DNA of 64,000 nt, taken from assembly GCA_000004695.1 (NCBI GenBank), contig CM000150.2, positions 1,664,001 through 1,728,000 on the forward strand. The letters run 5' to 3'. The position numbers and the translations under genes were made by a program. This DNA comes from Dictyostelium discoideum (taxonomy: Eukaryota). Shown here piece after piece: positions 31,570 through 32,937 of this stretch; within the stretch, counting starts at the first letter, position 1; every line of letters starts with the position of its first letter. The notes under the pieces are model-generated. The model was not told the DNA's origin. It saw only the letters and a list, made by a program, of their open reading frames with translations, and did not search any database.

Positions 31570-32937
31570 TCAACGTAACCATGATTGATCAATTACAGAA
31601 ACGTCTTTAATGTATTCACTCCTATCAATTTTAAAAGTTTCACCAAACAAGACAAATTGATTAGACTCTGGAACAACAGAAGAAGTTGGGTGTAACAAAA
31701 CCTTACGAATTGGTTCAACAATGGTTTCATAAGAATTATCAGTTGTTGATTTTGCTACATTGTTAAAGAAACCCGATAAAAATGATTTTTTAATATGATC
31801 AGTTGATTGTTTACTACTACTTCCATCATCATTACATGATAATAATTTAACTGAAACTTTTGTTAAACAATTTAATAATTGATTTTTAATTTGTTGAACA
31901 GTTTGAATCGTTTGAAAATTAATTTGATTATCATTACACCAAATTGGTGAACATTTATTTGAAATAAATGAATTGTAAACATTTAATAATGTTAAATGAT
32001 CACTTTGACTATCAATTAATGCTGATGATGATAATTTACTATTAATAAAAAGATCATTTTTGTTATTAATAAGTAACATTGAAATAATATTTAAAATTTG
32101 TTCACTACAACCAAGTTTTTCAGATTCAATAATTACTTTTGAATAAATTGGTTCTAATGGTAAACCAACCATAGTATTACCAATTGATGTTAATTTTGAT
32201 GATCCATTATCTTGATTTGATGAAATTGCACCTAATCTAAATAATTCATTCAATGATTGATTGATTAATTCTAATGATGGTGATGTAATCATTTCAAAAC
32301 TTTTTAAATTATCAATATTAAATGATTTTAATTGTAAAATAAAAGGTGTTAGATTTTTACATTTTTCAATTTCAGGAGTAGTTGTTGTTGTTGTTATTGA
32401 AGAATCTTCATTACCAAATGAAAGAGTGGAAACATTATCTGAACCAAAGAAATTTTTAATTTCATTTGCATTTGAATTGGTTGATGTTAATATAACAATT
32501 TTTAAATCTGGTCTTTTTGTTGTTGAAATTTCTAATTTCTTTAATAATGCTAATAATAAATCAGTACTTAATGAACGTTCATCAACTTGATCAATAATTA
32601 GAATTGAATAATTATTTAATAATGGATCAACAATCATCTCTCTTACTAATAAACCATCAGTAATAAATTTAATTTTTGATTCATTTGAAACTTTTTCTTC
32701 AAATCTAATACCATATCCAACAGTTTTACCAACTTGTTCATTCATTTGTTTTGAAACTAATTCTGCTAATTTAATTGCGTTACTTCTTTTTGCTTCTGTA
32801 CAAACAATTGTTTTATTTGTTGGATTATCATTTAAAAATAATTTTGGAATTTCACTTGCTTTTTCAGTTTTATCACCACCAACAATAATTAATATTTTTT
32901 TAATTTCTAATAATGATAAAATTTCTTTTTTATTCAT
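31570..32937 (-). CDS. DEAH-box RNA helicase-like protein with degenerate catalytic motifs and no RecA2 domain (probable pseudo-helicase), 455 aa from the ATG at 32937
   Basis: The DEAH framework is conserved: Ib VGYGIRFEE, IKFITDGLLVREM, DPLLNNYSILIID, then an HA2-like LPLEPIYSKVIIESEKLGCSEQILNIISMLL and an OB-like VLLHPTSS. Motif I is GGDKTEKASEIPK instead of GETGSGKTTQIP. Motif II is DQVD instead of DEAH. Motif III is TST instead of SAT. Motifs IV-VI of the second RecA domain are absent. The track start at 32967 is a TTG; the first ATG is MNKKEIL. Confidence 0.6.
   Translation of the reverse strand: MNKKEILSLLEIKKILIIVGGDKTEKASEIPKLFLNDNPTNKTIVCTEAKRSNAIKLAELVSKQMNEQVGKTVGYGIRFEEKVSNESKIKFITDGLLVREMIVDPLLNNYSILIIDQVDERSLSTDLLLALLKKLEISTTKRPDLKIVILTSTNSNANEIKNFFGSDNVSTLSFGNEDSSITTTTTTPEIEKCKNLTPFILQLKSFNIDNLKSFEMITSPSLELINQSLNELFRLGAISSNQDNGSSKLTSIGNTMVGLPLEPIYSKVIIESEKLGCSEQILNIISMLLINNKNDLFINSKLSSSALIDSQSDHLTLLNVYNSFISNKCSPIWCNDNQINFQTIQTVQQIKNQLLNCLTKVSVKLLSCNDDGSSSKQSTDHIKKSFLSGFFNNVAKSTTDNSYETIVEPIRKVLLHPTSSVVPESNQFVLFGETFKIDRSEYIKDVSVIDQSWLR

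Follow-up and report, generated by a model that had tools for sequence, protein, structure and literature searches.

A probable pseudo-helicase of Dictyostelium: a DHX35-related protein without RecA2

What becomes of a DEAH-box helicase gene once its product has lost a RecA domain and the residues of its ATP site, and why would such a gene be kept? The question is raised by DDB_G0268212, an intronless gene within a stretch of 64,000 nucleotides of the Dictyostelium discoideum genome (contig CM000150.2, positions 1,664,001 to 1,728,000; hereafter the window), whose existing annotation reads just hypothetical or ‘helicase ATP-binding domain-containing’. DEAH-box helicases power the remodelling of the spliceosome and the ribosome, and RecA2, which is distinct from RecA1 and the C-terminal domains, moves during ATP hydrolysis. 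DHX35, a splicing-fidelity factor characterised recently, is a spliceosomal quality-control helicase activated by GPATCH1. We think it likely, if well short of certain, that DDB_G0268212 is a lineage-specific DHX35 duplicate that is catalytically dead, lacks RecA2 and is selectively kept, most likely as an ATP-independent binder of RNA or of a partner.

Domain architecture and the fate of the helicase motifs

A preliminary description of this locus, made from the letters of the sequence, had reported an intact open reading frame (ORF) of 455 amino acids related to DEAH-box helicases. The frame is as described. It comprises 455 codons, starts at an ATG in the context aaaATG, ends at a TGA at 31570-31572, and its product is 100% identical to DDB_G0268212 of D. 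discoideum AX4. All of the strings that had been quoted from it are present (VGYGIRFEE, IKFITDGLLVREM, DPLL..YSILIIDQVDERS, LTSTNS, LPLEPIYSKVII, GCSEQILNIISMLL and VLLHPTSS). Coordinates of the gene and its parts are collected in Table 1.

Pfam recognised HA2_N (residues 228-261), HA2_C (residues 262-317) and OB_NTP_bind (residues 382-454) in the protein, all above cut-offs, and gave no match to DEAD, AAA or Helicase_C. The preliminary description had expected HA2 and OB matches without Helicase_C, which were seen, and a partial DEAD match, which was not; the relationship to DEAH helicases is itself unambiguous. Searching all PDB chains with phmmer matched 65 chains of DEAH/RHA helicases, and the alignment fell into two blocks throughout the best 60 of the 65. 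Against DHX8, residues 3-169 correspond to residues 24-187 (RecA1) and residues 183-454 to residues 366-626, leaving DHX8 residues 188-365 (about 180 residues, comprising RecA2 with motifs IV-VI) without a counterpart. This gap and the missing Helicase_C match bear out the claim that motifs IV-VI are absent. RecA1 runs straight into the last RecA2 helix, followed in turn by a winged-helix (WH), a ratchet and an OB domain, and a disordered linker of about 15 residues replaces RecA2. Compared with DHX35, the protein also lacks the N-terminal ~60 residues, the QQRxxLPI element included, and the last ~13 residues at the C-terminus.

The predicted fold agrees with this layout. An AlphaFold2 (AF2) run on a 33-sequence alignment gave a confident model, with a predicted local distance difference test score (pLDDT) of 85.6 and a predicted template modelling score (pTM) of 0.82, in which disorder was limited to residues 177-184. 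Foldseek superposed the model on structures of DHX15, Prp22, DHX8, Prp2 and DHX35 with query TM-scores of 0.82-0.88. From this superposition on intact helicases, the predicted arrangement of RecA1 relative to the WH, ratchet and OB domains is the native one, and the position of RecA2 is empty.

The catalytic motifs that remain have been rewritten, in DDB_G0268212 as in its orthologues (together, the short proteins). The preliminary description had read the P-loop as GGDKTEKA, and so it stands, with the refinement that the lysine (K26) is kept: over the longer motif, GNTGCGKST of DHX35 becomes GGDKTEKAS, both P-loop glycines are lost (Lys/Gln and Glu) and the P-loop Thr/Ser is Ala. The helicase-invariant T, G, G and T of motif I are D, K/Q, E and S/I in 8 of 8 orthologues. 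Motif II, reported as DQVD with loss of the catalytic Glu, is DQVD, DQVN or DQAN among the orthologues, in the context IDQVDERS vs. IDEAHERS in DHX35, and E117Q is found in all eight. The TST reported for motif III lies in LTSTNS, which aligns to SSATL of DHX35. Among 25 intact helicases of the DHX35, DHX16 and DEAH10 kinds, 173 alignment columns reach a conservation of 90% or more. Of these, the short proteins keep 69 and have lost 61 by deletion (chiefly in RecA2 and the N-terminal element); another 30 differ in essentially all eight proteins and 13 show partial change. The changed columns concentrate in motif I (its T, G, G and T), in motif Ia, in motif II (E→Q, A→V, H→D/N) and in motif III.

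The RNA-binding face of RecA1 has fared differently from the ATP site. In the structure of Prp43 with U7 RNA (PMC5262380), ctPrp43 R153, R180/F181, T195 and R201 touch the RNA, and the RF pair of the hook-turn is an RNA-contacting element of DEAH proteins. By spacing and motif context, we equated R51, R78/F79, T93 and R99 of DDB_G0268212 with these residues. All RecA1 residues reported as RNA contacts in ctPrp43 are kept in the short proteins, whereas the ATP-site residues are replaced. Because the P-loop cannot wrap phosphate, the Walker-B Glu is missing and the arginine finger of motif VI is missing, ATPase or translocase activity of DDB_G0268212 would, on its sequence, be excluded with reasonable confidence.

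A hidden upstream exon that supplies a normal P-loop, which the preliminary description had named as grounds for abandoning its reading, was considered and rejected. No exon able to restore the P-loop lies in the 555 bp (32938..33492) 5' of DDB_G0268212. This interval, which extends to enolase, the next gene upstream on this strand, is AT-rich and non-coding, so there is no missing exon there, and the orthologues begin at the same Met.

Outside RecA1, the Glu of the WH-domain ‘MAEFP’ sequence, invariant in intact DEAH helicases, is Gly (G258 of MVGLP, window 32164-32166) in all Dictyostelium short proteins. The same column is Gly in P0286 and P0198, two RecA2-less proteins described below. This suggests that the normal role of the MAEFP Glu may depend on RecA2.

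Parentage, distribution and selection

Bit scores against the PDB chains did not discriminate parentage (DHX8 236, DHX16 213, DHX35 211, Prp43 210). A D. purpureum protein (P0020) matched DDB_G0268212 at 45% identity, against about 30% for other helicases, and the short protein is 44-51% identical to Dictyostelium DHX35 vs. 33-36% to mouse DHX35 or DHX16. In neighbour-joining (NJ) trees of Kimura distances with bootstrap, the short proteins were monophyletic in 100% of replicates, lay within genus-Dictyostelium DHX35 in 85% and within dictyostelid DHX35 in 90%, and grouped with DHX35 as a whole, apart from DHX15, DHX16 and DEAH10, in 94.5% and 98.5% (two trees). As to when the duplication took place relative to the D. 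purpureum split, the clade of short proteins, which has a long stem, joined D. purpureum DHX35 as its sister at 80% bootstrap, a placement that may reflect long-branch attraction. The phylogeny proposed in the preliminary description therefore ends in DHX35: DDB_G0268212 is a DEAH paralogue, and descent from Prp2, Prp16, Prp22 or Prp43 was rejected on the placement in these trees.

Intact DHX35 genes are found in D. discoideum (P0070, 716 amino acids), D. citrinum and D. firmibasis, each about 72% identical to D. purpureum DHX35, which is complete at 688 amino acids (GQTGCGKS, DEAH, SAT and RecA2). The deposited D. purpureum model for P0020, DICPUDRAFT_25225 (385 amino acids), is truncated at its N-terminus; the uninterrupted 688-codon ORF lies at L001 9092..11158 (GL870943.1). 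All of these DHX35 genes are intronless and occupy a conserved TPR-DHX35-SHQ1-cytochrome-chaperone neighbourhood (D. discoideum, D. firmibasis, D. citrinum and D. purpureum). No synteny was found between the DDB_G0268212 locus and the D. purpureum DHX35 locus. Because synteny with the DHX35 locus is missing and these genomes also carry an intact DHX35 in its syntenic position, DDB_G0268212 is a dispersed, lineage-specific DHX35 paralogue and not a degenerate orthologue. The latter was rejected, since P0070 is intact at the TPR-DHX35-SHQ1 locus and DDB_G0268212 sits beside enolase.

Proteins of the same architecture were found in two further D. discoideum isolates, D. cf. discoideum, two D. citrinum isolates, D. 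dimigraforme and D. firmibasis, with 97% to 64% identity to AX4; the protein database yielded no orthologue from D. purpureum. In five further genomes the short gene lies between enolase and the BB_PF/Erf4 pair, matching the window. In D. firmibasis (L002:6001-7404, CM069770.1) the neighbours differ and enolase is not adjacent, which implies that this copy was rearranged or relocated; it is an intact single ORF of 467 amino acids, and the deposited 464-residue model carries a spurious 3' intron. Since the orthologues have their deletion boundaries and dead motifs in common, both were already present in the common ancestor. In 7 of 8 genomes the coding sequence (CDS) is stop-free and in frame, and every indel that separates the orthologues keeps the frame and lies in a low-complexity stretch.

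Substitution rates tell the same story as the open frames. By the NG86 method, the ratio of nonsynonymous to synonymous rates (omega) was 0.24-0.51 for the short gene (bootstrap upper limits ≤0.86), 0.10-0.14 for DHX35 and 0.04-0.10 for enolase. Since extreme AT bias (22% GC) can distort NG86, we also ran pairwise maximum likelihood (ML) under GY94-F3x4, which gave lower absolute values (0.10-0.17 for the short gene, 0.06-0.07 for DHX35) and the same conclusion. Likelihood-ratio tests rejected omega = 1 in every pair tested (p 8e-13 to 2e-31). Pooled by part, NG86 omega was 0.36 for the OB domain, 0.37 for the RecA1 remnant (ML 0.06-0.12), 0.40 for the RecA2 tail helix, 0.54 for the ratchet and 0.56 for the WH domain; the linker, with a pooled ratio of nonsynonymous to synonymous differences (pN/pS, NG86) of 1.23, is neutral and serves as an internal control. 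Random substitutions in this sequence make stops in 9.3% of cases, and in a neutral simulation over a synonymous tree length of 0.88, where about 112 nonsense changes are expected, the ORFs stayed open in 0 of 3000 replicates. The short gene is under purifying selection across all its folded parts, dead RecA1 included.

The gene is also transcribed, as its place in a microarray list for the lrrB-null strain shows, where the transcript is 2.6-fold up (PMC2906285; the only paper naming the gene). The preliminary description had proposed tests of omega and of expression: omega is significantly below 1 by both methods, and the transcript is detected by this published microarray. Its view of a retained non-enzymatic paralogue, as opposed to a decaying pseudogene, is supported, with the frame intact in 7 of 8 genomes, omega well below 1 and the gene disrupted only in assembly GCA_054859205.1. 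Catalytic residues are lost, the fold is predicted to be retained and purifying selection is present, so that the protein would qualify as a pseudoenzyme.

Possible roles of a RecA2-less DEAH protein

A history can be proposed. After duplication, the protein would have lost the N-terminal extension and the last C-terminal helix, the whole of the mobile RecA2 (by an in-frame deletion tracking the domain boundaries) and, in motifs I, II and III, the residues that bind and hydrolyse ATP. It would thus be left with RecA1, WH, ratchet and OB domains, which AF2 predicts to pack as in intact enzymes. Because the protein still has RecA1 with its RNA-contact residues as well as the C-terminal domains, we propose an ATP-independent binding role. 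The kept RecA1 surface (R51, R78/F79, T93, R99) and the C-terminal half of the former RNA tunnel could hold single-stranded RNA (ssRNA), and the protein may also sit in protein docking sites used by DHX35. It would act in RNA processing as a static binder, placeholder or competitor and not as a motor, in effect a binder of ssRNA or ribonucleoprotein (RNP) derived from the DHX35 pathway.

When 1.8 billion representative proteins were scanned exhaustively with HMMER, two more proteins came up, P0198 (514 amino acids) and P0286 (485 amino acids), that align to the whole query in one stretch. Both are eukaryotic (from Logan SRR29176001 and an ENA assembly) and run from RecA1 through a short linker and xPEIxR..VLQLK into WH, ratchet and OB domains. 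Their deletion boundaries match those in Dictyostelium, falling after the strand that follows motif III and resuming at xPEIxR. DEAH has become DELQ or DEVQ and SAT has become TTT or TSN, and the RNA-contact residues of RecA1 are intact. P0286 is one uninterrupted ORF on a genomic contig of ~50% GC (L012 4001..5458) and so is not an artefact of a splicing model. Their parent is DHX15 and not DHX35: the closest relatives are metazoan DHX15 proteins (44-49% identity), and in the tree they grouped with DHX15 in 100% of replicates and with the Dictyostelium clade in 0%. P0286 differs from DDB_G0268212 further in retaining an intact GKT P-loop. Since P0286 and P0198 are 47% identical to each other, the second family is also conserved, and it looks like a convergent, domain-precise loss of RecA2 from another DEAH parent. 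A tentative generalisation, to which we would give rather less than even chances, is that RecA2-less DEAH proteins may form a recurrent convergent class of pseudo-helicases that act as ATP-independent RNA/RNP clamps or placeholders, with at least two origins (DHX35 and DHX15) and the ORF maintained in both.

Several points weigh against a conserved RNA binder. The AF2 domain arrangement may have been imposed by the intact helicases in the input alignment; the retained RecA1 residues may serve folding and not RNA contact; and the RecA2 contacts known from ctPrp43 (E316, G349, T381, N382 and K403) are gone, which leaves half of the RNA tunnel and perhaps a low affinity. Constraint on the short gene is 2-4 fold looser than on its parent DHX35, and the Dictyostelium family forms a single 50%-identity cluster in the HMMER scan, confined to a narrow clade. 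The D. cf. discoideum copy in GCA_054859205.1 (L006:6001-7369) is disrupted by TTA→TAA at AX4 codon 212 (L212) and by an 8-bp frameshift deletion in the LLNVYNSF motif, both lesions being bridged by annotated introns in the 388-residue FIY model. Either this lineage lost the gene recently or the assembly is in error here; unless the lesions are errors, the gene is dispensable in at least one lineage. The higher omega, the broken allele, the narrow range and the D. firmibasis copy outside the enolase neighbourhood would also suit a slowly decaying relic, that is, a transcribed duplicate heading for loss, without a function of its own, whose constraint is residual or artefactual. Such a relic is already disfavoured, and we hold it to be improbable: the ORF is intact in seven of the eight genomes over a tree length at which no neutral simulation survived, omega = 1 is rejected in every pair tested (p ≤ 8e-13), neutral evolution is confined to the linker, and indels are in frame and limited to low-complexity stretches.

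If the gene is selected, its product could still bind something other than RNA. In the structures of DHX35-GPATCH1 (PMC11958768) and DHX15-NKRF (PMC7132122), the G-patch brace-helix docks on the WH domain (the site that binds more strongly) and the brace-loop docks on RecA2. DDB_G0268212 keeps the WH domain, predicted to be folded, and might thereby act as a decoy that titrates GPATCH1, the activator of DHX35, or another G-patch protein, with a dominant-negative effect on DHX35-dependent splicing quality control. Two of the three hydrophobic site-1 positions of helix alpha15 (L536, M537 and L540 in DHX15) are conserved, the L536 equivalent being I/L and the L540 equivalent L/F. The M537 equivalent, however, is Asn or Ser in 7 of 7 orthologues, and the adjacent invariant Glu (E541 equivalent) is Asn. 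We rate the decoy as no better than an outside chance because of this polar M537 equivalent, because single site-1 substitutions abolish binding in DHX15 (PMC7132122) and because site 2, the brace-loop pocket, was deleted along with RecA2. Moreover, the WH domain has the highest omega among the folded domains, and P0286 and P0198 likewise degrade site 1 (M→T or E, L540→K). Residual enzymatic activity, through a non-canonical nucleotide site that hydrolyses ATP alone or with a partner giving RecA2-like residues in trans, is harder still to credit, and we regard it as very unlikely. K26, D116 (the first Asp of motif II), E120 and R121 are conserved, and the convergent P0286 keeps GKT and the Walker-B DE, but in the short proteins the P-loop glycines are Lys/Gln and Glu, its Thr/Ser is Ala, every orthologue has Gln for the catalytic Glu, the deletion has removed motifs V and VI (with the arginine finger), and the Pfam DEAD and AAA models miss the domain. 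The reading of DDB_G0268212 as a catalytically dead, ATP-independent binder is the one that we retain.

Genomic context and comparison with known systems

The window has a GC content of ~22%, and the source genome is likewise AT-rich. Around DDB_G0268212 it contains FancD2-like (38484-42290, minus), enolase (33493-34824, minus), Erf4-like (29320-29952, plus) and NmrA-like (22758-23651, plus) genes, an order that is kept in D. citrinum, D. dimigraforme and other genomes of the D. discoideum complex. Rfam and tRNA scans of the window returned nothing bearing on DDB_G0268212. They did locate two tRNA genes (22235-22318 and 24222-24293, plus), one a tRNA-Thr(AGT) and the other of 83-84 nt, whose anticodon was left unassigned by ARAGORN, probably owing to an intron. 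Two stretches are odd in composition for this genome: 8001-10000, with a GC skew of +0.47, and 24001-28000, with GC 0.30-0.33, GC skew −0.33 to −0.37 and an AT skew that exceeds +0.2. Both overlap ORFs without a Pfam match (8557-9843, minus; 24502-25200, plus; 27546-28523, plus) and are probably low-complexity coding repeats.

Table 1. DDB_G0268212, its domains and motifs, and its 5' flank, in window coordinates (aa, amino acids)
Feature	Position	Strand	Remarks
Complete single-exon CDS of DDB_G0268212 (455 aa + TGA)	31570..32937	minus	100% identity to P0001
AT-rich intergenic/promoter region, enolase stop codon to DDB_G0268212 start	32938..33492	minus	555 bp, no coding exon
RecA1 remnant, aa 1-170	32428..32937	minus	Aligns to DHX8 24-187; catalytically dead, under purifying selection; AF2 pLDDT 75-88
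Degenerate motif I GGDKTEKA (aa 20-27; GNTGCGKS in D. discoideum DHX35)	32857..32880	minus	Only K26 kept
Motif Ia remnant TEAKRSNA (TQPRRVAA in DHX35)	32776..32799	minus	RNA-contact Arg R51 kept, invariant in 33 sequences; equivalent to ctPrp43 R153
GYGIRFE with hook-turn RF (R78/F79)	32698..32718	minus	Fully conserved
Motif Ib TDGLLVRE with T93, R99	32638..32661	minus	Fully conserved; equivalent to ctPrp43 T195, R201
Degenerate motif II DQVD (DEAH in DHX35)	32581..32592	minus	E117Q in 8/8 orthologues; H119 is D or N
Degenerate motif III LTSTNS (SSATL in DHX35)	32473..32490	minus	By alignment; A and T positions lost
Low-complexity linker in the place of RecA2, aa 171-186, ..GNEDSSITTTTTT..	32380..32427	minus	pLDDT <50 at aa 177-184; length differs among orthologues
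Terminal RecA2 helix TPEIEKCKNLTPFILQLKSFNIDN, aa 187-213; only piece of RecA2 left	32299..32379	minus	Aligns to DHX35 IPEIQRSNLTNTILQLKALGIDN
Winged-helix (HA2_N), aa 214-261	32155..32298	minus	Pfam HA2_N; one G-patch site-1 position polar
Ratchet-like/helix-bundle (HA2_C), aa 262-380	31798..32154	minus	Pfam HA2_C; pLDDT about 90
OB-fold, aa 381-455, ends ~13 residues before the DHX35 C-terminus	31573..31797	minus	Pfam OB_NTP_bind E=1.8e-12

A protein that selection keeps with no more than RecA1 and the C-terminal domains amounts to a dissection of the enzyme made by nature, in which half can be useful alone, and it offers a handle on what these domains bind in vivo (RNA, spliceosome surfaces or cofactors). 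In an amoeba well suited to genetics, a dead DHX35 paralogue could influence the quality control of introns, and the independent DHX15-derived cases suggest a general, uncatalogued route to pseudo-helicases. The stakes are moderate, given the narrow family and the apparent loss in one strain.

In the literature searched, we found no description of a DEAH protein that lacks RecA2 and is yet under selection. The closest comparison is with the direct parent, DHX35, to which DDB_G0268212 is 44-51% identical and with which it has in common the folds of RecA1, WH, ratchet and OB as well as the residues of the hook-turn and of motif Ib. It differs from DHX35 in lacking RecA2 and the N-terminal extension, in its truncated C-terminal helix, in the destruction of motifs I, II and III and in one polar G-patch site-1 position; it also lies at another locus, and the same genomes hold a separate intact DHX35. 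Among DEAH proteins already described, the nearest analogue is DHX32 of vertebrates, a DHX15-like paralogue with degenerate motifs, which has substitutions in all helicase motifs (SAT→SSP, altered motif VI) and is suspected to be without unwinding activity (PMC7988694). Unlike DDB_G0268212, which has neither RecA2 nor a usable ATP site, DHX32 has its two RecA domains, together with the motif I lysine and most of motif II, and is probably an ATPase (PMC7988694). Finally, Utp25, a DEAD-box-like component of the small subunit (SSU) processome, and the PriA of D. radiodurans are described as combining a helicase fold and inactivated motifs with a structural or binding role; they belong to other helicase families (DEAD-box and PriA). 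Pseudo-helicases are thus already known in other families, and DDB_G0268212 would be one within the DEAH family.

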